From positions 1 through 61,683 of IMG/VR virus record IMGVR_UViG_3300044878_000127: DNA of 61,683 nucleotides. One strand, written 5' to 3'. The notes under the pieces are model-generated. The model was not told the DNA's origin. It saw only the letters and a program-made list of their open reading frames with translations, and did no database searches. Of the stretch, positions 5,122 through 20,138 are shown in pieces. Source of the DNA: a virus. Its lineage: Duplodnaviria; Caudoviricetes. Position numbers and translations under genes: made by a program. Each line of letters opens with the position of its first letter. Position 1 is the stretch's first letter.

Positions 5122-6492
5122 TTGATCGAGGCTATCAACCGCGCCACTGACTTATCCCTAAACAAAGGTCTGCGCGTCATGCAGACCGCGCTCATTGGCG
5201 GGAGTCAGGCTGCGCACGTCGAGTACCTGTTAAAGCTGATGAACCCGATTCCCGGCGCGCACATCGTTGACGCCGGGTGCGGCATTGGCGAAGTGCCGTG
5301 GTTGATGCAGGGGCACCGACCGGACTTGGAATTTACCCTGGTCAACATCAGTCAGCACCAGCTGGATATGGCGCCATTTGGCCCGCAGTTTCACCAGCTG
5401 CTGGCCGACTTCACCAACAGCCAGTTGCCAGCCGGCTGCGCCGACGTGGTGATGTTCAACAGCGCGTTGTGCCAGATGCCGATTAATCAGGCCCTGAGCG
5501 AAGCCCGGCGCCTGCTCAAGCCGGGCGGCCAGTTGTTCGTCTGCGATCTGGCGATTGCTGAATACCGCGAGCTGCCCGAGCTGTACGCCACGTTCATGCC
5601 GGCCGATACCTGGAGCGAAGTGATCGAGCGCCATGGTTTCAAGATGATGAAAACCATCCTGACGACCGGTGACATGGAGCATTTTTCGGGCGAGTTCGAG
5701 GACTTCGAGCAGGCTTTGCCTGACGCCATGGTCTACATCGCGCAGTTCAGCAAGCAGGCCGATGATGCGCACTTGATGTCAGCGCTCGACCGGCATGAAC
5801 GCATTGCCTTTCAATTCAGCGGTGGCAAGGATTCGTTTGCGGCGCTGCTCCTGCTCCAAGAGCACTGGCCGCAGATGACTGTGTACTGGACGAATACCGG
5901 TGACCCGGTGCCGGAAGTGCTGGCGATGGTGGATCAGGTGCGCGCGCTGGTGCCGCACTTTGTCGAGATTGCCGGGCGGGTGAATGAGCAGATCGCCGCG
6001 CACGGCTTGCCGTCTGACCTGGTGCCGACCACTTCGGCGCCGACCGGGCTTATCGCCTACGGCGGCGGCGTGGCGCTGCAAGACCGCTTCAACTGCTGCT
6101 ATCACTCGTTGATGCTGCCAATGCAGGAACGCATGGTAGCCGATGGCGTGACGCTGATCGTGCGCGGGCAGAAGAGCGCCGACGTGATGAAGTCGCCATT
6201 GCGCTCGGGCGCCCTGCACGACGGCATCGAGCTGCTGTTTCCCATTGAGCACTGGACGGACACCGACGTGTTCGACTACCTCAACGGCAACGCCTTTGTG
6301 CCGGAGTATTACGAGCACCTGACCGCGTCGCCGGACTGCCTGACCTGTTCGGCCTACTGGGGCGAAAGTCGCGCCACTTGGCTGAAGACCAAACACCCCG
6401 AGGCCTATCAGGTCTATCAGGGTAAGCTCGACGTCATTCGCGAGGCGGTCATGCCGCACATCGCCCTGTTTAATCTGGAGGTTGCGCAATGA
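5122..6492 (+). CDS. SAM methyltransferase fused to a PAPS/APS-reductase-like domain
   Basis: VDAGCGIG motif I; PP-loop FSGGKDS; CC...CLTC cysteines; TTG start after GAGG. Confidence 0.85.
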   Translation: MIEAINRATDLSLNKGLRVMQTALIGGSQAAHVEYLLKLMNPIPGAHIVDAGCGIGEVPWLMQGHRPDLEFTLVNISQHQLDMAPFGPQFHQLLADFTNSQLPAGCADVVMFNSALCQMPINQALSEARRLLKPGGQLFVCDLAIAEYRELPELYATFMPADTWSEVIERHGFKMMKTILTTGDMEHFSGEFEDFEQALPDAMVYIAQFSKQADDAHLMSALDRHERIAFQFSGGKDSFAALLLLQEHWPQMTVYWTNTGDPVPEVLAMVDQVRALVPHFVEIAGRVNEQIAAHGLPSDLVPTTSAPTGLIAYGGGVALQDRFNCCYHSLMLPMQERMVADGVTLIVRGQKSADVMKSPLRSGALHDGIELLFPIEHWTDTDVFDYLNGNAFVPEYYEHLTASPDCLTCSAYWGESRATWLKTKHPEAYQVYQGKLDVIREAVMPHIALFNLEVAQ

Positions 6493-7844: not shown

Positions 7845-10800
7845 GTGGCAGAGAATCGCTTTCTACAGTCGCCATTCACGCAGGCCAGCCCTGCGACCGA
7901 CGCGCCAAGCACCCCGCCACTGCCCGAATTCAAAGCCCTGCCCGCGCGTAACGCCAGCTCCGGCCCGCTGACATCCAGCGCCGCGACCGTCCTGAGCAAA
8001 GGCCTGTTGCCGCCGCCTGACCTGCAACCCCTGTTCGAGAAGTATTCCGCTGAATACGGCGTTCCTCTGAACGTGCTGTCGGCCCTGGCGCAGCAGGAAT
8101 CGCGCTATAACCCCAACGCCGTCGGCGAGCAAACCAAGTGGGGCAAGGCCAAAGGCATGCTCCAAAACCTTGACGCCAACGCCAAGTCCTTGGGTATCGA
8201 CCCGTTCGACGCTGAACAGTCGATTGCCGGCGCCGCGCGGCAGATGCGTGAGCGCATGGACAAGGGTTACAGCATGGAGGATGTGGTGAAAGCCCACTTC
8301 GGGGGCGATAACCGTGAACAGTGGGGCGAGAAGACCAAGGCCTACGGCCAAGAGGTGTTAGCCAAATCCAGCATCATTGGCAGCGAGCTGATGGCCGGTA
8401 AGAAGGCCGCTGCGCCTGCCGCGCAAGGTACTGACCTGTCCGCTATCCAAGCTGAAATGGACGCCAAAGAGCCCGGCCGTTACAAGGTGATCGACCCGGC
8501 CGACATCGCCGAGCGTGACCAGCAGCGCGCCAGCATCGCCAGCGGAAAGGACGCACTGAAGAATGCCCAAGCCGAAACCGGCGCCTATGAAGCCCCGTCG
8601 CCGTTGACCCTGCAAAACCAGCAGGCGGTCGAGGACAAGGTAAACAGCGCCTCGGCGCCGTCGCCGTTGACGCCGACCAACCAAAGTCTGGTGCAGAAAG
8701 GCATGGCACCGGTCGATACCCGGCCGGAAGACGGCTTTGTTGATGCCACCGGCAAGCAGCTGAAGAACTTCGGCCCGCACATGAAAGACGCGGTGGCCGG
8801 GCTGGTGCGCATGGGTAGCGAGAGCATCGACAACGCCACGCTGGTCGGCAACGCCGGCAGCACTGGCATTATCGAGCGCATGCAGGACAACGGCGACATC
8901 ATCATGGTGCAGAACGAGCGCGGGCAGATGACCCCGACGCTGCGTGATGGCAAGCCGGCCGACGAGGCAAACCTTGCCGCGTACATCCGCAAGAACGCTG
9001 GCGACCTGATGTCGGCGGACGAAGCCGGCGCACTGATCGGCATGAAGCCGCGTGCGGTGACCGAGTGGGCGCAGAAAACTGCCAAGCAGGCCAAGCTCGA
9101 CACCATCGAGGTACGCCCCGACGGTCCGCTGGCCAAGTACGGCAGCATGATCATTGGTTCGACGGCAGAAATGATTCCAGCCCTGGCTGCGTCCGCCATC
9201 ACCCGTAACCCGGGCGTGGGTATGTCGTTGATCGGTGGCCAGGTGACCGGCCAAAGCTACAACAAAGGCCGTGCAGGCGGTCTGAACGCACAGGACGCCG
9301 GTAACTATGCGCTGGCGCAGGGCATGGCCGAAGCGATTCCGGAAGCCTTGCCGATTCATGTGATCCTTCAGCCAGGGCAAAACTTCTTCAAGGGCCTGCT
9401 CAAGGGCGGCGCCGCTGAGTCGGTGCAAGAAGGCGTGACGCAGATCATTCAGGACGGCCTTGATAAAGGTTCGATTGATCCGAACATGACGTGGGCGCAA
9501 GCGCGTCAGAACCTGGCCGACGCCATGATTGTCGGCGCTGGCGCTGGTGTGGCGCTGAAGGCAGGCGTTCACGGCATCCAGAAGGGTGTCGACACGCTGT
9601 CGCGCAACCGCGAGACTGATGCCGCCGCTGCCGCACAGGAACAGGCCGCGCAACCCGAGTTCGCTCCTACAGGTGAAACCCAGCAAACACAGGCACCTGA
9701 AGCTGATTTGACTGCCGAAAACCCGGCCCCCGCTCCCACAGGTGCAGAACCTGCTCCGGCTGCCCCTGTCGACGGCCCGCTGACCCGCGCCGCGCAGAAG
9801 TTTGTGGCGCCAGAACCGGAAGTGACGCCCACCGCTGAAGCCCCGGGCGAGCCGGTCACCGTGCGCAGTTCCGACGGCGAAATGGTCGGCACCTTGCAGG
9901 ATTACCAAGACCTCGGCCAGGGCAAGTGGTCCGCGCGCGTGCTGGCCGATGACGGCAACGCCTACGACTTCACGCAGGACGACGGCGTACAGCTGGACCG
10001 TGGCGAGCAGCCATCGCCGGCAGCGCCATCGATCCCGACCACCGGCAAGGTTGGCAAAATCCCAACCCTGACCGACGTGGTGAAGCCAGGCGTTGAAATC
10101 CAGACGTTGACTGAAGAAGTGCCGACGCTGACCGATGTTGTCGAGCCAGCCCCAGCGCCCGATTATTCGTCGATGGACGTGCCGCAACTGCGCACCGAAC
10201 TGAAAGTCATCGCCACCGCGATCAAGGCTGATCCGAAAAACAAGGCGCTGACCAAACAGCGCAGCACCATCGAAAAAGCGATCAAGGCCAACGTTGAGAA
10301 CGCGATCAGCAAACCGGCCGTGGCCGAGCTGGTCGGCGACAAGATCGATAAGGAATGGTCGCGCTTCGCCGATGACTCGGGCAGCTTGAACATCCCGCGC
10401 GCCGACATGCCGCAGATCAAAGCCGAGCACCGCGGCGCGCTTGCAAATTTCCTAAGTGCTCGGGGTGTAAAAAGCACGCATGAAGAAGTTCCAGCGGCGA
10501 GCCTAAAACCTACGCAGATGGAATTTTCGCCGGCCAAGGTCAAGAAGGCCATGGAATTTACTGGCGGCGATCGATCGATTCTTGTGTCCAAAGATGGTCA
10601 TGTATTGGACGGTCACCACCAATGGCTTTCAAAACTTAGCGGTAATGATCCTGTAAAGATCATTCGATTGGACGCGCCAATTTCCGACTTGATCAGCCTG
10701 GCTAAAGAATTCCCGAGCAGTACAGTTGCTAGTGGTGGTAGTCTAAACGCCAGCCCATCAGTTAATTTAAAAAATGAGAACGCACCTACACCGAAGAACG

Positions 10801-13800
10801 ACACCAACTCCGACCTACTCAACGTGGACGGCAATCAAGAAGCGTTGCAGCAATCCAAAGGCAACGGGGTACAACAGGTACGGCGGAGCGGGAGTGACGG
10901 TCTGCCAGCAGTGGATGCACAGCTACGAGACATTCCTGTCGGACGTCGGGGAGCGACCGAGCCTGAAGCACACGCTCGACAGAATGAACGGAAGCCTGGG
11001 CTACGAGCCGGGGAACGTTCGGTGGGCGACGAAGGGAGAGCAGGCGCGCAACCGAAGCAGCAACGTGAATCTGACATTCAAGGGCAGAACACAGGTGGCG
11101 AAGGACTGGGCCGCGGAGGTCGGATTGAATCCACCGACGCTGTACGCTCGCCTGAAGAAGGGTTGGACGGTGGAGCGCGCTCTGACAGAGCCGCAGGCCA
11201 CAAGGAAGCCGCGAAACCGCTGAGCCCGCAGCAGAAGGCAAAGGCCCGCGCCGAAGCCAAGCGCGAGGCTGCGCGTGAGCGCATGGGCGGGATTAAGGAA
11301 GGTGATCAGTTCATCCCATCCGTCGATGTCGGTTATATCACCGGTGGTGAGACGTACACCGTTGATAGTATCGACAGCAGCGGCAACGTCTACGTCAAAC
11401 GCAGCGGTACCAACAGCGGCACTCATTTGTCGCACGCCGACTTCAATGTGGCCGAGCACAAAGGCGTGACTTTCACCAAGGTCGAAGCGCCGACGCCGGC
11501 TATGGAAACACCAGCCGCACCGGCCGAAACGGCCAAGGAACTGGTAAAGGCTGCCGAGTATGGCGCGAGCAACAAACTGGTCAGCACCGATCGCGCGGCC
11601 GAGTTGCGCGCCAAGCTCAAGGCCAAGTTGAATGGTTCGCAGCTGAACAGCGGCATCGATCCCGAGATTCTGGCAATGGGCACCGAGCTGGCCGTGTTCC
11701 ACATCGAGGCGGGCGTGCGCAAGTTTGCCGAATTCGCCAAGACCATGGCTGAAGACTTGGGCCAGCCACTGGAGAAAATCCGCCCGTACCTGCGCAGCTG
11801 GTACAACGGCTCCCGCGACATGATCGAGGATGCCGGGCACTCCATCGCCGGCATGGACAGTGCTGATACCGTGCGCGCCGAACTGGTCAAACTGGACCAG
11901 GCGCCGGCAACTACCGAGAAATCCTCGGCAGTTCAGCCGCCAGCAGAAGCACCGCAGGCCTTGGCTGTTGGCGTGTACAGCCACAAGCAGCACCCCGAAG
12001 TGACGGCTACTGTCAGCTCCACAGATAAAGGCTACGCTATCGAGTGGGCGCCTGATGATGTTCAGGAGTTCAAAGGCAAACATGCTGTCGCCAAAGCACA
12101 GGCGGCGCTTTCAAGAGAGGGCTATACCCTCAACGAGGATTCTGATGCAGCAAGTACCAGCCAGCGTGTGGAACCAGATCGCGCAGACGCAACCCCTGCA
12201 AAACCCGTCGATGAAAGAACTGTTCCTGATGAATCAGGCGCAGCTCGACGAGGCACTGGCGAGCCAGGCGCAAGCGATGTCGAAGTTCGGGCAGACGGAC
12301 AGCGTGATCAACGCGTACCAACTGATGGCGCCGCTACTGGCCGAGAATCAGGCGATCAGCGCGTACATCAACCAGACGGGGCATTCCGACCTACGGTCAG
12401 CACTGCCGGAGGTGCTGAACCCGTCCGAGGCGACAGCGATCGCAACGCAGGAGAACCCGTTGAGCGCGAGCGAGCAGAACACATTGTTGAATCTGCTCCG
12501 TCCACTGATGCCATCGAGTTCAGTGAACGTCTAGCCGCACAGAAAAAGGCCGCGGGCACCAAGACGGTACGCGGCGACAAAGCCAACATTGACGCGGCCC
12601 TGCCGTTGCTGCTCGAACCCCAGCGCGACGATGTGCTGAAGGCCGAGCAGCGTTTCGCCGTGGGCAACGGCATGCTGCTCACCAACGGCACCGGCACCGG
12701 CAAGACCGCCAGCGGTATGGGCGTGATCGTGCGTTCGATCAACGCTGGCAAGCCCAATGCCCTGGTGATCGTCCCGAGTGACAAGATCGCTTCAGACTGG
12801 GTGAAGTTTGCCAAGATGCTGGGTGTTGAGCTGAAGATGCTCGAAAGCACCAGCGACAACGGCGGCACCGGCCCGGTCATCACCACCTATGCCAACTTCG
12901 GCGCCAACGATAGCCTGGCCCAGCGCGACTGGGATCAGTTCGTGGCGGACGAGGCGCACTACCTGTCGAGCAACGAGGCCGGCGAAGGCACTGGTGCACT
13001 CGCTCGCCTGCAAGCCCTGAGCGGCCATCACGACGGCTTCTATCAGTGGGTGCGCCAGCGCAACGCCAAGGAGTGGGGCGCCTACAAGGCGGCGATGAAC
13101 GCCAGCCGTGACGCGGCCGTGCCGGATTCCGGCTTTACCCAAACGCAGAAAGACCAGCTGGCCGAAGCTGAAGGCAAGCAGCGCGACCTGTGGGAAGCCA
13201 TCGAGAAGCCAGCCAAAAAAGCCTGGCAAGAGCGCTGGGCAAAACAGCAAGACCTGCCAAAAACCCTGTTCCTGTCGGCAACGCCGTTCGCCTACGTCAA
13301 AAGCGTGGACTATGCCGAGGGCTACCTGTTCGATTACGTCGCCCCGGCCGAGCGCTACAGCAACCGTCGCGAAACTGAAGGCGCCGCTTACAACAGTGGC
13401 GACGCGCGTGAAAAGTTTTTCATGCAGCACTTCGGCTACCGCATGCGCTACAACAAGCTGACCGCACCGGAAGCCGGGGTTGACTCCGAGCTGATGGAGC
13501 AGAATTTTAACCAGCACCTGAAGGACATCGGTGCGCTGTCGGGCCGGCGCTTGGAGGTGCCGTACGACTACGACCGCAAGTTTGTGATGGTCGATGACGC
13601 CGTGGGCCAGAAGATCGACCAGGGCCTGGCGTTCCTGCGCGAGCATGCCGATGGCAAATACCGCAAGGTCTATGACGCGGTAATGGCGACCTTCGACTAC
13701 CAGCGCCGTATGTACCTGCTCGAATCGATCAAGGCCCGGGCCGTGGTGCCGATGATCAACGAGCACCTGAAGCTCGGCCGCAAAGTGGTGGTGTTCCACG

Positions 13801-16800
13801 ATTACAACAAAGGCGGCGGTTTTGATCCGTTCGCCTCGGGCCTGGCCAGCATCACCGAGCCGGACGTGCGCGCCCTGGCCCGCGAAGCCTTTGCCGCGCG
13901 TCCGGACATCTTCAAGAAAATGGACTTGAAAGGCCTGTTCTCGCCGATCGATACCTTGTCGGCGGCCTTCCCTGACGCCTTGTTCTTCAACGGCACCGTG
14001 CCGAAAGCCAAGCGCCGGGCGAATGCTGACACCTTCAACGACGATAACAGCGGCAAAGACCTGATCGTCTTGCAGTCGGATGCCGGCCGCGAAGGTGTGA
14101 GCCTGCACGACACCAGCGGCAAGCACATGCGCGTGCTGATCAACCTCGGAATGCCCGGCAAGCCGGTCGCCGCGATCCAGATCGAAGGCCGCACCTACCG
14201 CACCGGCCAAGCCAGCGACGCGGCATTCCGCTACCTGACCACCGGCACGGCATGGGAAGCCAGCGCCTTCGCCAGCAAGATCGCCGAGCGCGCCTCGACC
14301 GCTGAAAACTTGGCGCTGGGCACCGACGCCCGCGGCCTGAAACAATCGTTCATCGACGCCTACAACGGCGCCGAAGACCTGGCCCCGAGCGCTGACGACG
14401 GCAAGGGCGGCAAGGCCATCGACCGTGAACTGGCGGCTACCGCCACACTGAGCCCGTTCAACAAGGCCAAGGCCTACTACTTCGCCCAACAGAAGAACAG
14501 CAAGCGCCGCGACCAGCGCGAAGGCGTGGATTACTTCGCCACCCCGGAACCGGTCGGCTTCAAGATGGCCGAGTGGGCCAACATCCAGAAGGGCGACGAC
14601 GTACTGGAACCGTCGGCCGGGCATGGCGCCATCGCGCGATTCTTCCCGCCGCAAACCAACGTCACCATGGTCGAGCCGAGTTATGACCTGTCGCAGCGCG
14701 CGGCGCTGGCCAATGGTCAAGCACGGATCATCAACGACACCTTTGAGTCGCTGCACCTGACCAACAAGTACGATGCGATTGTGATGAACCCGCCGTACGG
14801 CAATGGCGGCAAGACAGCCATCGAGCACGTCGCCAAGGCGGCCAAGCATCTGCGCGAAGGCGGGCGGATCGTTGCCTTGATTCCGCGCGGCGGCCTGACT
14901 GACAAGCGCCTGGCGGCCTTCCTCGAAAGCGAAGAGGCGCAAGACCTGCACCGCGTTGCGACCTTCACCATGCCGGCGTCGACCTTCGAGCGCGCCGGCA
15001 CCTCGGTGAACACGCAAGTGATCGTACTGGAAAAACACAGCAACCCGGACGATGCGCAGAACATCCACGCGCGCACCATCAACCTGGACAACGCCCAATC
15101 GACCGGCGAACTGTTCGACCGCATCGAGCACCTGGACCTGCCCGACCGCATGCCGAGCAGCAAGCCTGAAGTTAAACCGGTGATGATTGAGCACGTCACT
15201 GGCAAAGGTAAGACCCTCACCGGTATCGTGCGCACCGACCTGACCAAGGACGAAGCCAAGGAAATCGACCCGTACACCTTCCCGAAAAATGGCGGCTTTT
15301 TCATCCGCTCGAAATACCTCGGTGATGGCAACCGGTTGTCCGTGGCAGCGCCAACCGGCGACCCGGCCTCGCACCAGGAAGTGCGCGACGCGATCACGCA
15401 AGGCCCGTTCGGCACGGTGGTCAAGAAGCTGATCGACAGCGGCAACATCGTGGTGCACGGCAATGTGCAGTCGCTGCCGGACGGCGTAACACCGGTTACC
15501 GGCATGCAAGCGGTCACCACGCCCGACGGCAAGGTGCATTTGGTCGCGGCCAACCTGACCCCGGGCAACGCCAACGGCGTGTTGCTGCATGAAATGTTTC
15601 ACAGCGGTGGTGAAACGCTGGTGGGCTCCAAGCGCTGGGCCGGCCTGATGTCGCGCCTGGACGGTTTGCAGCGACAGGCCGAGCAATCCACCGGCAAAGC
15701 CCGCGCCGTGTTTGATCGGGCGCGTGAGCGCGTGCAGCAAGCACAAGCGCAAGGCGCCGTGGCAGAGAGCATGAGCGCCGAAGAGTTCGGTGCCTACGCG
15801 ATCGAGGAATACGAGCAGCTGCCGAAGGCGTTCCGCTCTTGGGTAGATGACCTGGTGGGCGCGATCAAGCATTGGCTGTTCAGCCGTTACGGCAAGCAGC
15901 TGGGCCAGGTCACCCCGGCGCAGTTGCGTGCGATGGCCAAGGACGCGCTGATTTCCATGGCCCTGGCCAAGCGTGGCGAGTTGTTCGGCCCGGCCGGGAC
16001 CATGTTCAGCGTGCGCCCGTCGAAGGTGTTCAAAGACCTGACCGACAAACAGAAATCGTTCCTCGACAAGATCGGCCCGGAGAAGCTGCCGCAGGTATTG
16101 GCTGACCGCTGGCGCCAGCTGACCGATAACCTCGGTCTACGCATCCGCCAGGCCGGTGTCGACCGCTATGCCTCGCTGCTGCGCAATGACAAAGCGCTGT
16201 ACGGCGCCGAGACGCTGGAAGGCTCGATTGCCGACAGTTCTTGGGTACTGGCGCGCATGAGCCCGGCCGCGGGCGGCGCCGTTCACGCACTGCTGAACAA
16301 CGGCCGTATCTACCGTGACGCTGATCAGAAGGTTATCGACATCCGCGACGGCACCACCGGGCTGGGCGCCACCTTGCGCAAGCTGGGGAGTCCTGCCGAA
16401 ATCGACCGCTTCATGGGATGGATTGCGGCCAACCGCTCGAAACGCCTGCTCGGCGAAGGCCGTGAAAACCTGTTCACCCCGGATGAAATCGAGGCGGGCA
16501 TTAAACTGTCGGCCGGCAAACTGCTCGACGGCAAGCCGCGCGGCATTCTTTACCAGCAAGCCTGGAAGGAATTCCAACAGCACCGCGACGACGTGCTGGG
16601 CATCGCCGAGGCTACCGGGATCATCACCCCGGAACAGCGCGCGACCTGGAGCGATGAGTTTTATGTGCCGTTCTATCGAGTGATCGATAGCGACAACCTC
16701 GGCGGGCCGAAGTCGGGCGGCGGTGGCTTGTCGCGTCAGCAAGCGTTCAAGAAACTGAAGGGCGGGCGCCAGCACCTTAACGATTTGCTGGAAAACACCC

Positions 16801-18653
16801 TGCTGAATTTCCACCACCTGCTGCAAGCCAGTTTGCGCAATCAGGCTGCCGCGATGGCGATGACCAACGCCGAGCAGCTGAGCATTGCCGACAAGACCAC
16901 CGAAGCGCGCCGGGACAAGAATAACAGCACCTTCGTCATGGTTGACGGGGAAAAGCAGTGGTACAACGTGAGCGACCCGCTGACCTTCAAGGCCGTGACG
17001 GCGCTGTCGGATACCGGTATGAACAACGTAGCTATGCGGGTGATGCGTGGCTTCAAGCGCTTCTTCACCAACATGACCACCATCACCCCGCAATTTGTGG
17101 TGGCGAACGCCATCCGCGACACGCTGTCGGCCATGGCCACGTCGCCGACGAGCGCGATCCCACTGAAGACCGCGTTCAAGGGCGCGCTGACCTACGGCAA
17201 CAACCACCAGCGGGCGCGGATGATGGCCAGCGGCGGGGCGTTCTCCTTCGGCCACGTCTATGGCCAGGGCGCGCACGAAATGAAGGTCGCCATCACCGGC
17301 ACCATGCGCAGTGCGCAAGTGCTGCGCGATCCGAAGTTGATCCCGAACATCTTGCTGAATGCCTGGCGCAAGTATCACGACGTGACCGACTTCGCCGAAA
17401 ACATGAACCGCGCCGGCATTTGGGAGCACAACAAGGGCAAGGGCAAACTCAAGGCCGCTTTCGAGGCGCGCGACCTGATGGACTTCAGCGCACACGGTGA
17501 TGCGGCGGCGATTCGCTTCCTGATCGACGTGGTGCCGTTCCTCAATGCGCGCATCCAGGGCTTGGACAAGCTCTATCGCACGGGCGTCAAGCCAAGCCTG
17601 AAAACCTTGTTCGGCAAGGGCAGCAAGTCGGATAAGCAGGCCTTTGCCCGCTTCGCCGCGGTGATTGGCGCACTGACCGCATTCAGCGTGATGCTCTACC
17701 TGCGCAACAAGGACGATGAAGACTATCGCAAGCTGGAAGACTGGCAGCGCGACACCTATTGGGTGATCAAGGTCGGCGGTAACATGTTCTTTATTCCGAA
17801 GCCGTTCGAGGTGGGCTCGATTGCCACCATGGGCGAGCGCCTGATGGAGCAGTTTGTTGATCCGACGGTGGGCGGCGACAAGCTGGCAGACCGCGCGCTG
17901 CACATGCTGAAAGATACCTTCTCGATGAACCCGATGCCGCAGGCGTTCAAGCCTATTCAGGAGCTGAGCTCTAACGAAAACAGCTTTACCGGCCGGCCGA
18001 TTGAAGATCAGTCGATGGCACGCCTTAGCCCAAGCCTGCGTGCGCGCCCGGAAACCACGCGACTGGCGGAAGCATCGAGCCGCGGCATCGAGAGTGCGCT
18101 GGAACTGGTGGGCGCCGGCAACTCGGCATTGAGCCCGGTGCAGATTGACCACCTGATCCAGGGTTACTTGGGTGCGGTGGGCACGACGGCGATCGGCACG
18201 GCGGACACCCTGTGGCGTCGCGCGCAGGGCGAAGAGTTGCCGGCCCGCAGCTGGGATGAATACCAGCCGGTGAAGCGCTTCTACAAGGACTTGACCAAAG
18301 AGGACAACTACACGCGGTACGGGACCGACTTCTACACCGCGCTGAAGAAGTCCGACCAGGCCTATGCAGACCTGCAACACCTGGCCAAGTACGGCGAGGA
18401 AGAGAAGGCCGTGGCGCTGGAAGAGAAGAAGGGTGATGTGTTGGCGCTGCGCACCACCTTGAACAAGGTCAACCGGGATATGTCGCGGATCAATGCGGAA
18501 ATGAAACGTGTGCAGGTCGATAAAGAAATGGACGGCAAAACCAAACGGCTGGAACTGGACCAACTGCGCTCGATGCGCAACCTGATGACCGAGGAAATCG
18601 GCAAGGACTTGGAGCAGATGAAGATGTCTAAGCGGGCTTCCGCGCCACAATAA
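7845..18653 (+). CDS. Giant DarB-like polyvalent virion protein (lytic transglycosylase, ParB-like, SF2 helicase, N6-adenine MTase, zincin-like peptidase, LPD38-like)
   Basis: 3602-aa open frame; QESRYNPNAV (SLT), LDGHHQW (ParB/Srx), GTGTGKT and DEAH, VLEPSAGHG and NPPY, LLHEMFH, C-terminal IPKPFE. Confidence 0.9.
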   Translation: MAENRFLQSPFTQASPATDAPSTPPLPEFKALPARNASSGPLTSSAATVLSKGLLPPPDLQPLFEKYSAEYGVPLNVLSALAQQESRYNPNAVGEQTKWGKAKGMLQNLDANAKSLGIDPFDAEQSIAGAARQMRERMDKGYSMEDVVKAHFGGDNREQWGEKTKAYGQEVLAKSSIIGSELMAGKKAAAPAAQGTDLSAIQAEMDAKEPGRYKVIDPADIAERDQQRASIASGKDALKNAQAETGAYEAPSPLTLQNQQAVEDKVNSASAPSPLTPTNQSLVQKGMAPVDTRPEDGFVDATGKQLKNFGPHMKDAVAGLVRMGSESIDNATLVGNAGSTGIIERMQDNGDIIMVQNERGQMTPTLRDGKPADEANLAAYIRKNAGDLMSADEAGALIGMKPRAVTEWAQKTAKQAKLDTIEVRPDGPLAKYGSMIIGSTAEMIPALAASAITRNPGVGMSLIGGQVTGQSYNKGRAGGLNAQDAGNYALAQGMAEAIPEALPIHVILQPGQNFFKGLLKGGAAESVQEGVTQIIQDGLDKGSIDPNMTWAQARQNLADAMIVGAGAGVALKAGVHGIQKGVDTLSRNRETDAAAAAQEQAAQPEFAPTGETQQTQAPEADLTAENPAPAPTGAEPAPAAPVDGPLTRAAQKFVAPEPEVTPTAEAPGEPVTVRSSDGEMVGTLQDYQDLGQGKWSARVLADDGNAYDFTQDDGVQLDRGEQPSPAAPSIPTTGKVGKIPTLTDVVKPGVEIQTLTEEVPTLTDVVEPAPAPDYSSMDVPQLRTELKVIATAIKADPKNKALTKQRSTIEKAIKANVENAISKPAVAELVGDKIDKEWSRFADDSGSLNIPRADMPQIKAEHRGALANFLSARGVKSTHEEVPAASLKPTQMEFSPAKVKKAMEFTGGDRSILVSKDGHVLDGHHQWLSKLSGNDPVKIIRLDAPISDLISLAKEFPSSTVASGGSLNASPSVNLKNENAPTPKNDTNSDLLNVDGNQEALQQSKGNGVQQVRRSGSDGLPAVDAQLRDIPVGRRGATEPEAHARQNERKPGLRAGERSVGDEGRAGAQPKQQRESDIQGQNTGGEGLGRGGRIESTDAVRSPEEGLDGGARSDRAAGHKEAAKPLSPQQKAKARAEAKREAARERMGGIKEGDQFIPSVDVGYITGGETYTVDSIDSSGNVYVKRSGTNSGTHLSHADFNVAEHKGVTFTKVEAPTPAMETPAAPAETAKELVKAAEYGASNKLVSTDRAAELRAKLKAKLNGSQLNSGIDPEILAMGTELAVFHIEAGVRKFAEFAKTMAEDLGQPLEKIRPYLRSWYNGSRDMIEDAGHSIAGMDSADTVRAELVKLDQAPATTEKSSAVQPPAEAPQALAVGVYSHKQHPEVTATVSSTDKGYAIEWAPDDVQEFKGKHAVAKAQAALSREGYTLNEDSDAASTSQRVEPDRADATPAKPVDERTVPDESGAARRGTGEPGASDVEVRADGQRDQRVPTDGAATGRESGDQRVHQPDGAFRPTVSTAGGAEPVRGDSDRNAGEPVERERAEHIVESAPSTDAIEFSERLAAQKKAAGTKTVRGDKANIDAALPLLLEPQRDDVLKAEQRFAVGNGMLLTNGTGTGKTASGMGVIVRSINAGKPNALVIVPSDKIASDWVKFAKMLGVELKMLESTSDNGGTGPVITTYANFGANDSLAQRDWDQFVADEAHYLSSNEAGEGTGALARLQALSGHHDGFYQWVRQRNAKEWGAYKAAMNASRDAAVPDSGFTQTQKDQLAEAEGKQRDLWEAIEKPAKKAWQERWAKQQDLPKTLFLSATPFAYVKSVDYAEGYLFDYVAPAERYSNRRETEGAAYNSGDAREKFFMQHFGYRMRYNKLTAPEAGVDSELMEQNFNQHLKDIGALSGRRLEVPYDYDRKFVMVDDAVGQKIDQGLAFLREHADGKYRKVYDAVMATFDYQRRMYLLESIKARAVVPMINEHLKLGRKVVVFHDYNKGGGFDPFASGLASITEPDVRALAREAFAARPDIFKKMDLKGLFSPIDTLSAAFPDALFFNGTVPKAKRRANADTFNDDNSGKDLIVLQSDAGREGVSLHDTSGKHMRVLINLGMPGKPVAAIQIEGRTYRTGQASDAAFRYLTTGTAWEASAFASKIAERASTAENLALGTDARGLKQSFIDAYNGAEDLAPSADDGKGGKAIDRELAATATLSPFNKAKAYYFAQQKNSKRRDQREGVDYFATPEPVGFKMAEWANIQKGDDVLEPSAGHGAIARFFPPQTNVTMVEPSYDLSQRAALANGQARIINDTFESLHLTNKYDAIVMNPPYGNGGKTAIEHVAKAAKHLREGGRIVALIPRGGLTDKRLAAFLESEEAQDLHRVATFTMPASTFERAGTSVNTQVIVLEKHSNPDDAQNIHARTINLDNAQSTGELFDRIEHLDLPDRMPSSKPEVKPVMIEHVTGKGKTLTGIVRTDLTKDEAKEIDPYTFPKNGGFFIRSKYLGDGNRLSVAAPTGDPASHQEVRDAITQGPFGTVVKKLIDSGNIVVHGNVQSLPDGVTPVTGMQAVTTPDGKVHLVAANLTPGNANGVLLHEMFHSGGETLVGSKRWAGLMSRLDGLQRQAEQSTGKARAVFDRARERVQQAQAQGAVAESMSAEEFGAYAIEEYEQLPKAFRSWVDDLVGAIKHWLFSRYGKQLGQVTPAQLRAMAKDALISMALAKRGELFGPAGTMFSVRPSKVFKDLTDKQKSFLDKIGPEKLPQVLADRWRQLTDNLGLRIRQAGVDRYASLLRNDKALYGAETLEGSIADSSWVLARMSPAAGGAVHALLNNGRIYRDADQKVIDIRDGTTGLGATLRKLGSPAEIDRFMGWIAANRSKRLLGEGRENLFTPDEIEAGIKLSAGKLLDGKPRGILYQQAWKEFQQHRDDVLGIAEATGIITPEQRATWSDEFYVPFYRVIDSDNLGGPKSGGGGLSRQQAFKKLKGGRQHLNDLLENTLLNFHHLLQASLRNQAAAMAMTNAEQLSIADKTTEARRDKNNSTFVMVDGEKQWYNVSDPLTFKAVTALSDTGMNNVAMRVMRGFKRFFTNMTTITPQFVVANAIRDTLSAMATSPTSAIPLKTAFKGALTYGNNHQRARMMASGGAFSFGHVYGQGAHEMKVAITGTMRSAQVLRDPKLIPNILLNAWRKYHDVTDFAENMNRAGIWEHNKGKGKLKAAFEARDLMDFSAHGDAAAIRFLIDVVPFLNARIQGLDKLYRTGVKPSLKTLFGKGSKSDKQAFARFAAVIGALTAFSVMLYLRNKDDEDYRKLEDWQRDTYWVIKVGGNMFFIPKPFEVGSIATMGERLMEQFVDPTVGGDKLADRALHMLKDTFSMNPMPQAFKPIQELSSNENSFTGRPIEDQSMARLSPSLRARPETTRLAEASSRGIESALELVGAGNSALSPVQIDHLIQGYLGAVGTTAIGTADTLWRRAQGEELPARSWDEYQPVKRFYKDLTKEDNYTRYGTDFYTALKKSDQAYADLQHLAKYGEEEKAVALEEKKGDVLALRTTLNKVNRDMSRINAEMKRVQVDKEMDGKTKRLELDQLRSMRNLMTEEIGKDLEQMKMSKRASAPQ
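10774..11223 (+). CDS. HNH-type phage endonuclease nested in the +1 frame of the giant gene
   Basis: TYSTWTAIKKRC...YNRYGGAGVTVCQQW...F..DVGERP...TLDRMN...YEPGNVRWAT..EQARN, plus a C-terminal DNA-binding module (WAAEVGL...LYARLKKGW). Confidence 0.88.
   Translation: MRTHLHRRTTPTPTYSTWTAIKKRCSNPKATGYNRYGGAGVTVCQQWMHSYETFLSDVGERPSLKHTLDRMNGSLGYEPGNVRWATKGEQARNRSSNVNLTFKGRTQVAKDWAAEVGLNPPTLYARLKKGWTVERALTEPQATRKPRNR
12145..12534 (+). CDS. 129-aa hypothetical protein nested in the +1 frame of the giant gene
   Basis: GAGGA RBS 5 nt before the ATG; third-position G/C bias is in this frame; globular helical composition. Confidence 0.72.
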   Translation: MQQVPASVWNQIAQTQPLQNPSMKELFLMNQAQLDEALASQAQAMSKFGQTDSVINAYQLMAPLLAENQAISAYINQTGHSDLRSALPEVLNPSEATAIATQENPLSASEQNTLLNLLRPLMPSSSVNV

Positions 18654-19040: not shown

Positions 19041-19173
19041 TACCCCCTCCTAAATACCCCCTTCCCCCTGCTTTCCGTCTGGCAAACCGCCATTACGTCG
19101 CCCATTGGTTCCGTAACAGCACCAGAGAGACTATTATCTGACCATATTTAAATTGACTGGCCAGGGGCGCCGC

Positions 19174-19554
19174 ATGATTGAAGAGCTGAAACAGGCCGTT
19201 GAGGCGACCAAAGACCCGACGACTTACCCGGTGATGACGTATGCCTGGGTGGTGTTGATCGCGGCATGGGGCGGCCTGGTGCGCTTTCTGAATTCACGGC
19301 GAGAGCGAAAGGAAACGCTCGGCGAATCCCTTGGCACCCTGGCTATTGGTCTGATCACTTCAGTTTTCGTGGGCGTCCTCACGTTTTACGCCTGTGAAAT
19401 CGCCAATTTCGAAAAACTGACAACCGCCATTTGCGTGGCAATCACCGGGCACTTGGGCGCGCAGGCCATGCAGCTGTTCGAGAAGGCGATGATCAGTCGC
19501 TTGAAAGCCTTGTTTAAAGTAATTTTTGGCGCCGACTCGGTAGATACCCAATGA
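19174..19554 (+). CDS. Holin (LydA-like)
   Basis: KDPTTY..TYAWVVLIAAWGGLVRF motif, TM segments, overlaps the endolysin start. Confidence 0.8.
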   Translation: MIEELKQAVEATKDPTTYPVMTYAWVVLIAAWGGLVRFLNSRRERKETLGESLGTLAIGLITSVFVGVLTFYACEIANFEKLTTAICVAITGHLGAQAMQLFEKAMISRLKALFKVIFGADSVDTQ

Positions 19555-20138
19555 AAACCCCGCTGACCCTGGCCGATTTTGAACTGGCCGCTGCCACCCT
19601 GCGCGTTCCAGTCGCGGCCATTCGTGCCTTTGCTGAAGTCGAGTCGCGCGGCGCCGGCTTTCTGCCCGATGACCGTCCGGTGATCCTCTTCGAGCGCCAC
19701 GTTTTCCGCCGCCAGCTGCTGGCCAACAAGGTCGCGCCCGGGATCGTGGCCAACCTGGCGAAGACCCGGCCGGACCTGTGCAATGAAAAAGCAGGCGGTT
19801 ATGGCGCCGGCTCGAAGGAATGGCAGCGCCTGGACGACGCGGTACAGATCAATCGCCAGTCCGCCCTGGAGTCCGCATCGTGGGGTGCGTTCCAGGTGAT
19901 GGGCTTTAACTGGAAGCGATGCGGTTATGCCAGCGTGCAGGACTTCGTCAACGCCATGTTCAAGAGTTCGGCGGCGCACCTCGACAGTTTTGTGCGTTAC
20001 ATCCAGTCCGACGCCAACCTGCTCAAGGCTTTGCGTGCGCAGGACTGGGCGATGTGCGCGCGCCTGTACAACGGCCCCAACTACCTGATCAACAAGTACG
20101 ACACCAAACTCGCCGAGGCCTTTGCCCGGTACAGCTGA
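19551..20138 (+). CDS. Endolysin, N-acetylmuramidase (DUF3380 family)
   Basis: VESRGAGF...PVILFERHVF...SASWGAFQVMGFN...YNGP. Confidence 0.92.
   Translation: MKTPLTLADFELAAATLRVPVAAIRAFAEVESRGAGFLPDDRPVILFERHVFRRQLLANKVAPGIVANLAKTRPDLCNEKAGGYGAGSKEWQRLDDAVQINRQSALESASWGAFQVMGFNWKRCGYASVQDFVNAMFKSSAAHLDSFVRYIQSDANLLKALRAQDWAMCARLYNGPNYLINKYDTKLAEAFARYS

Follow-up and report, generated by a model that had tools for sequence, protein, structure and literature searches.

The window analysed here is a complete phage record of 61,683 bases, in which a giant gene occupies the last position of the virion module, with tail fibre and internal virion genes before it and holin and endolysin genes after it. 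This gene, here termed the host gene, contains a much smaller ORF in its +1 frame. The features of the locus, in window coordinates, are the following.

7845 to 18653, + strand: host gene, 3602 aa, polyvalent (SLT, SF2 helicase, adenine methylase and LPD38 domains)
11637 to 11873, + strand: unnamed helical host domain (host aa ~1265-1343), usually near the nested gene
12135 to 12139, + strand: Shine-Dalgarno-like GAGGA, with a five-base spacer to the nested ATG at 12145
12145 to 12534, + strand: nested gene, ATG to TAG, 129 aa, in the +1 frame with respect to the host ORF 7845-18653
12532 to 12534, + strand: nested stop TAG, formed by the host codons CTA GCC, CTA being a rare leucine codon
12567 to 14399, + strand: SF2 helicase/translocase (host aa ~1575-2185) with intact Walker A, Walker B, motif III and motif VI
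12681 to 12707, + strand: Walker A loop (host aa 1613-1621), entirely inside the predicted interface
14178 to 14207, + strand: helicase motif VI (host aa 2112-2121), its final three residues in the predicted interface
14442 to 15074, + strand: adenine methyltransferase domain, 3' of the helicase, co-conserved and given no contact in the model

The motif names used for the host helicase follow general usage for SF2 enzymes. The SF2 ATPase presents a Strawberry-notch-type C-terminal domain, and the host gene combines several unrelated domains (SF2 ATPase, methylase and LPDs among them) with a virion gene context, as is characteristic of polyvalent proteins; its relatives are annotated as 'DarB-like'. 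The host protein is likely to be packaged in the virion, by analogy with the DarB-like protein of JC1, identified as a virion component in the proteomics account of PMC9144972, and with P1 DarB, to which the corresponding passages of PMC9024508 and PMC12810830 assign the same location.

Several other observations concern the host gene and its surroundings. The unnamed helical domain, or its variant, lies within -700 to +450 codons of the nested gene in 111 of 137 host rows (repeated contigs included); it comes in two sequence variants (hhalign probability 91%) and can be found on either side of the nested gene, and the database proteins P0172, P0197 and P0200 present fusions of the two in both orders. 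A phosphoadenosine phosphosulfate reductase-like gene (5122-6492, +; PHROG E 1.4e-34) lies in the virion module just 5' of the giant gene. In one relative (L039, from position 10001 onward), the N-terminal match of the helicase is split near Walker A by an insertion of ~320 codons, possibly an intein.

Dual coding at the nested locus

The nested frame opens as the earlier note had described it, with GAGGA, five bases and an ATG leading into a +1 ORF of 129 aa. Its preference for G/C-ending codons, also pointed out there, amounts to a GC3 of 0.80, and over the same bases the host frame does read like a shadow, its GC3 falling to 0.40 as compared with 0.81-0.83 across the helicase-methylase and C-terminal parts. 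Even the hand count of six T-ending codons, all of them followed by a pyrimidine, proved exact. The CTA that the host frame contributes to the nested stop accounts for 5 of the 262 leucine codons in the rest of the host gene. In the window, the +1 stop-to-stop frame extends 47 codons 5' of 12145 (giving a 159-aa ORF from 12055); homologue starts align with 12145, and at 15 of 72 loci an in-frame stop lies immediately 5' of the ATG.

Taken alone, the open +1 frame of the window is weak evidence for a gene, since a stop-free +1 frame arises with a probability of 0.44 when the host peptide is recoded synonymously; proof comes with the homologues. Recoding the nested protein in the same manner leaves the host frame open with a probability of 0.13. 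Of the 72 loci (window included), all but five are nested, the ORF lying in the +1 frame and the host frame being open at these 67. Removal of duplicates, of a cut contig (L061) and of the five non-nested loci leaves 57 distinct copies; the host frame is open in all 57, as against ~4.3 expected under synonymous recoding of the nested protein, and the third frame contains stops at every locus. Of these 57 homologues, 50 have a Shine-Dalgarno match of at least four bases; for 5326 other +1-frame ATGs taken from the same set of host genes, the proportion is 13.8%. The nested stop falls on a host CTA codon in 29 of the 57, against a background use of 3.7%.

The pattern of substitution is equally frame-specific. 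In 14 close pairs, 158 isolated substitutions are silent in the nested frame and change the host peptide, 30 do the reverse, 39 change both frames and two change neither, with observed/expected ratios of 3.1 for nested-silent, host-changing substitutions and of 0.5 for host-silent, nested-changing ones; the helicase control region presents the normal third-position pattern in the host frame. Of the 496 pairs that can be formed among 32 sequences (the locus L009 being left out of this comparison), 491 have a higher identity in the nested frame than in the host frame, and the frame-specific signal holds down to ~30% identity, in phages of several host groups. Taken together, the open host frames, the substitution bias and the conserved signals indicate that neither frame is free to decay, the nested one being kept for its sequence and the host one for its continuity, and sequence comparison thereby confirms the +1 ORF at 12145-12534 as a gene under purifying selection. 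The earlier proposal of a real protein gene hidden from annotation is supported by its conserved start, ribosome-binding site and stop and by its frame-specific constraint, the nested frame being favoured in all frame-specific tests across homologues. Stops in the +1 frame of orthologues, or a better conserved host peptide, had been named as findings that would speak against such a gene, and the open frames of the homologues, together with the identity and substitution counts, contradict them.

Distribution of the family and its free-standing copies

A single-sequence search retrieved 31 proteins, mostly of exactly 129 aa and nearly all from short contigs, and a profile search extended the family to 552 clusters at 50% identity (E up to 0.001). 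Within the annotated phage collection, the nested gene is present in eight records, corresponding to Skulduggery (two), Parlo (two), ZX1, Ruegeria 45A6 and two Vibrio phages. F116 and Bcep22-like phages had been put forward as those in which to look for the gene; it was not found in the records of those phages in this collection. Of eleven further loci, nine hold a nested copy, one has a stop in the host frame and one gave no match. The host CDS is the only one annotated at the nested-gene site in six annotated phage regions, and in two plasmid records only the large protein is annotated under the match.

Searches of family databases gave little. The best Pfam match of the nested protein (E 0.028) falls short of the cut-off and its best PHROG match has an E of 0.017; 38 members of the family match no PHROG family at E 0.01, 31 longer members have no Pfam match, and no PADLOC model corresponds to the nested family. 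The ESM Atlas returned no usable match for the nested protein, and a genome scan with the Crenobacter homologue returned no match. Literature searches, which covered mainly freely accessible papers, brought up no description of a gene nested in such a giant protein, and the embedded genes noted for phage Parlo in PMC6606913 are spanins only. Judged by its sequences, the nested gene is thus a widely conserved, unannotated and new protein family, of which at least 552 sequence clusters escape standard annotation because they are hidden within what reads as a low-complexity linker.

Further +1 ORFs occur in these giant genes. In the window, a second nested ORF (10774-11223, +; 149 aa) encodes an HNH endonuclease (PHROG E 1.3e-50) with nested relatives in the hosts L048 and L053, and the presence of nested HNH genes in such hosts indicates that these linkers can take up a pre-existing gene while the host frame stays intact. 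Host-frame GC3 also drops below first-position GC at ~9495-9950 and 10395-10770 (+). A further +1 family, with members 66-76 aa long, is found 89-427 codons upstream of the nested gene in six relatives (L041, L046, L049, L051, L062 and L066) and combines Shine-Dalgarno motifs with flipped GC3; smaller +1 families of ~60 aa are found in L049/L062/L066, L042/L044 and L046/L051, and single +1 candidates include a 91-aa ORF in L010. The earlier note had suggested that linkers of large polyvalent proteins may often hide genes. The additional families seen in relatives, with their Shine-Dalgarno motifs and flipped GC3, are candidates for such hidden genes.

The five non-nested loci are L009 (Bacteroidales), L067 and L068 (both Bradyrhizobium), L070 (Magnetococcales) and L072, which is frameshifted. 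The first four adjoin integrases or primases, in satellite-like or integrative elements; in addition, the neighbours of L068 include a dCTP deaminase defence gene (PADLOC E 5.6e-158), and L009 lies near type I restriction, Mrr and AlbA genes. Bar two weak matches of 90-100 residues, the helicase-methylase was not found in the five genomes with free copies, and the fact that these copies keep their frame there fits a protein able to act in trans. Such copies are rare: a genus-centred sample of 401 genomes contained three, one of them broken and all of them already known. A quick tree places three of the non-nested copies within a supported clade of 31 rows, 26 of which are nested, and sets L009 apart. 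In L067 and in a B. japonicum protein a piece of the neighbouring host domain is fused in front of the nested domain, and in L070 the former host frame is still open for 168 codons, both of which can be read as signs of excision from a nested arrangement. On the quick tree, the likely direction of change is from nested to free-standing.

The Bradyrhizobium satellite-like elements (L068:6101-15152 and L067:9842-15686) carry a primase-polymerase or an integrase and share small genes, and the freed gene in them has C-terminal extensions. C-terminal extensions are also seen in the family members P0047 and P0134, where by eye they resemble a helix-turn-helix and have no Pfam match.

Linkage to the helicase-methylase module and predicted complex

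The helicase lies 3' of the nested gene in 66 of the 67 hosts, the contig of the 67th coming to an end; the methylase is present in 65 of the 67, and in all 65 hosts with both domains the helicase precedes it. Other parts of the host are variable: SLT is found in 20 of the 67, the metallopeptidase region in 26 and LPD38 in 36, and the ParB-like region also comes and goes, part of the variation in these four being due to the cutting of loci at 10 kb. When the helicase alone was used as query, all 74 viral loci obtained, the helicases of which share 36-91% identity with that of the window, carried the nested gene upstream in the +1 frame (E <=3e-12), at a distance of ~120 to 540 codons from the helicase. 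According to contig names, 40 of the 74 lie on contigs new to the nested-gene set, and in the annotated phage collection the nested-gene query and the helicase query lead to the identical eight records. In terms of gene content and order, these counts show that the nested gene is tied to the helicase-methylase module.

The nested protein, with a net charge of -6, is modelled by AlphaFold2 as eight helices (pLDDT 81, pTM 0.73). Foldseek searches against the PDB and BFVD at E 0.001 gave no match for this model, and the best result of a fold search (VIA, Z 4.5) has an rmsd of 4.1 over 86 residues; both outcomes are compatible with a new or a known fold. In one complex prediction, the nested protein was combined with host aa 1575-2410 on the basis of alignments from 49 loci; left out of these were the six annotated phage loci and five hosts in which the helicase-methylase match was partial or split. 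The complex scored 0.74 in three runs, the best of three controls reaching 0.00; the runs share at least 89% of contacts and the partner has a pLDDT of 87. This mark is attained by 116 of the 157 solved pairs and by 2 of the 215 mismatched ones, proportions that apply only roughly to the alignments used here, and 7 of 44 blind neighbour pairs passed in the predictor's own test.

The predicted interface includes the Walker A loop in full, together with the motif Ia helix, Walker B, motifs III and V and the end of motif VI, with contacts that bridge both helicase lobes around the ATP site. The model thus predicts that the nested product binds across the ATP cleft of its host helicase. A chaperone, inhibitor or packaging partner of the helicase/methylase part had been envisaged from the sequence of the window; co-occurrence at 74 of 74 loci agrees with this, and the complex model would locate the partnership on the helicase, no contacts being given on the methylase. 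Recall of a similar complex by the predictor is unlikely, since the nested protein has no solved relative by sequence (best E 0.12); the helicase has only distant ones. The 25 best contact pairs present a mean covariation z of 0.78, versus 0.08 and 0.12 for entropy-matched nulls (p <=0.001), a modest signal that is not independent of the model because the model saw alignments of the same families. Among the top 20 to 200 covarying pairs overall, interface pairs number 1, 1, 2 and 4 versus 0.4, 1.0, 2.0 and 4.1 expected, with no enrichment at an effective depth of 69, and the interface residues of the nested protein are no more conserved than the remainder (entropy 1.66 versus 1.52). At position 103 of the nested protein, which belongs to the interface, 91 of 93 sequences have Asp or Glu.

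Possible roles and comparison with known systems

The explanation that we favor, while giving it somewhat less than an even chance, is that the nested product would be made from the same late mRNA as the giant protein and would occupy the ATP cleft of the host's own helicase, acting as a lock that keeps the translocase-methylase inactive in the producing cell. Packaging or ejection would then strip the lock off, and the enzyme would be released on delivery to a new cell. Nesting would guarantee the joint inheritance, shuffling and expression of lock and enzyme, and the linker peptide, which needs little sequence, would be left to drift. Binding at the ATP cleft by itself fits inhibition, activation or folding help, and it is inhibition that we infer. 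A bolder version, which we consider rather unlikely, portrays the nested gene as an out-of-frame safety pin: a co-expressed inhibitor of a new family would plug the ATP site of the translocase until ejection, and satellites and integrative elements would repeatedly have stolen the pin and turned it against incoming or helper phages, disarming the enzyme that these inject.

Linkage to the module and an interface spanning both helicase lobes might equally be presented by a chaperone that keeps the 3600-residue chain soluble or capsid-loadable via those lobes, inhibition being incidental, and the description of P1 in PMC12810830 has DarB packaged in order with small accessory proteins. We judge a chaperone unlikely, if deserving of a serious hearing, in that the predicted contacts fall on catalytic motifs and not on general surface, and in that the persistence of free copies in genomes without the helicase gene is poorly explained by a dedicated chaperone. 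It seems distinctly unlikely that the nested protein is instead a subunit that is packaged, co-ejected and active in the new cell, where it would stimulate the helicase or couple it to the methylase in the manner of Ulx with P1 DarB. The nested gene is indeed present at every helicase-anchored locus, and the relevant part of PMC12810830 counts Ulx among the co-ejected Dar proteins needed against EcoB and EcoK, but there is no detectable likeness to Ulx (hhalign probability 0.1%) and a cover over the whole Walker A loop would more simply block nucleotide access. Made in lysogens or early in infection, the protein could also act as an exclusion or immunity factor that blocks the injected helicase of superinfecting relatives. 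Four intact free copies on integrase- or primase-bearing elements, one beside the dCTP deaminase and one near restriction-type genes, would suit such a role, as would the three places that free copies occupy among nested ones in the quick tree. Their rarity (3 of 401 genomes, one broken) argues against it, however, and no sigma-70-like promoter was found between 10000 and 13000 (0.6 expected by chance), so that there is no sign here of expression apart from the late operon; on balance, an exclusion factor is quite improbable.

Two further readings dispense with a separate gene. Some database proteins fuse the nested domain and the neighbouring host domain in one frame, as might be expected if the +1 frame were a part of the giant protein entered or left by programmed frameshifting. 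Such a segment is very improbable in view of the in-frame stop directly 5' of the ATG in 15 of 72 loci, of the conservation of the Shine-Dalgarno motif and ATG, of a stop retained at the cost of rare host codons, of a host frame that stays open, and of a distance to the helicase that varies from ~120 to 540 codons. The prospect that the ORF merely shadows the host frame and has no function is next to negligible; an open +1 frame is not rare in the window alone (P 0.44), but every frame-specific test favors the nested frame, down to ~30% identity and across the phages of several host groups.

Should the binding model hold, the nested lock would show phage control of a DNA translocase-methylase between its synthesis and its delivery, and would represent a natural inhibitor of an SF2 ATPase. 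The function of 'DarB-like' giant proteins would also become testable, as a knockout of the nested gene leaves the host domains intact in the cultured phage Skulduggery, which grows on a laboratory strain (Pseudomonas fluorescens SBW25). Deleting or expressing such giant genes also removes or adds a second protein.

The Rz1 gene of lambda lies in the +1 frame. Rz/Rz1 spanins are described in PMC9144972 as a whole gene inside another on the same strand, and in PMC5295617 their products are reported to form a complex, which provides a precedent for the arrangement seen here. The present case differs in that a soluble helical protein, encoded in one linker, is predicted at the enzyme active site of a 3602-aa multidomain host, and in that neither sequence nor context indicates a lipoprotein or lysis role. 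Identity with a spanin was considered and rejected: no PHROG families were obtained for the 38 members searched, and the holin and endolysin genes lie apart from the nested gene, at 19153-20138.

The Dar system of P1 offers a second likeness, since in the accounts of PMC5512222 and PMC12810830 it comprises a large virion-delivered methylase and SF2 ATPase protein with an adjacent small accessory gene. Ulx, however, is encoded by a separate downstream gene, whereas the nested gene lies inside its host, and the DarB methylase is placed N-terminal to the SF2 helicase in PMC5512222, the reverse of the host order. A comparison of the host with P1 DarB (last 1843 residues) reached an E of 0.09 only, and the nested protein was rejected as a Ulx homologue at an E of 0.63 against the single P1 sequence. 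The host shares its SLT, SF2 ATPase with Strawberry-notch-type domain, adenine methylase and LPD38 with the polyvalent proteins of Iyer et al. 2017 (PMC5512222), in the main text of which a word search found no 'overlap', no 'frameshift' and two instances of 'nested', both referring to a hairpin, and no nested gene.

The genes comS in srfA of Bacillus and gndA in gnd of E. coli are likewise small same-strand nested genes. Their products have fewer than 50 residues or act on other proteins. The gene described here encodes, in contrast, a folded family of 120-130 residues that is predicted to act on the product of its own host. Nesting itself has its precedent in Rz/Rz1; what appears to be new, on the strength of the complex model, is that a protein encoded within the gene of an enzyme is predicted to sit in the active site of that very enzyme.
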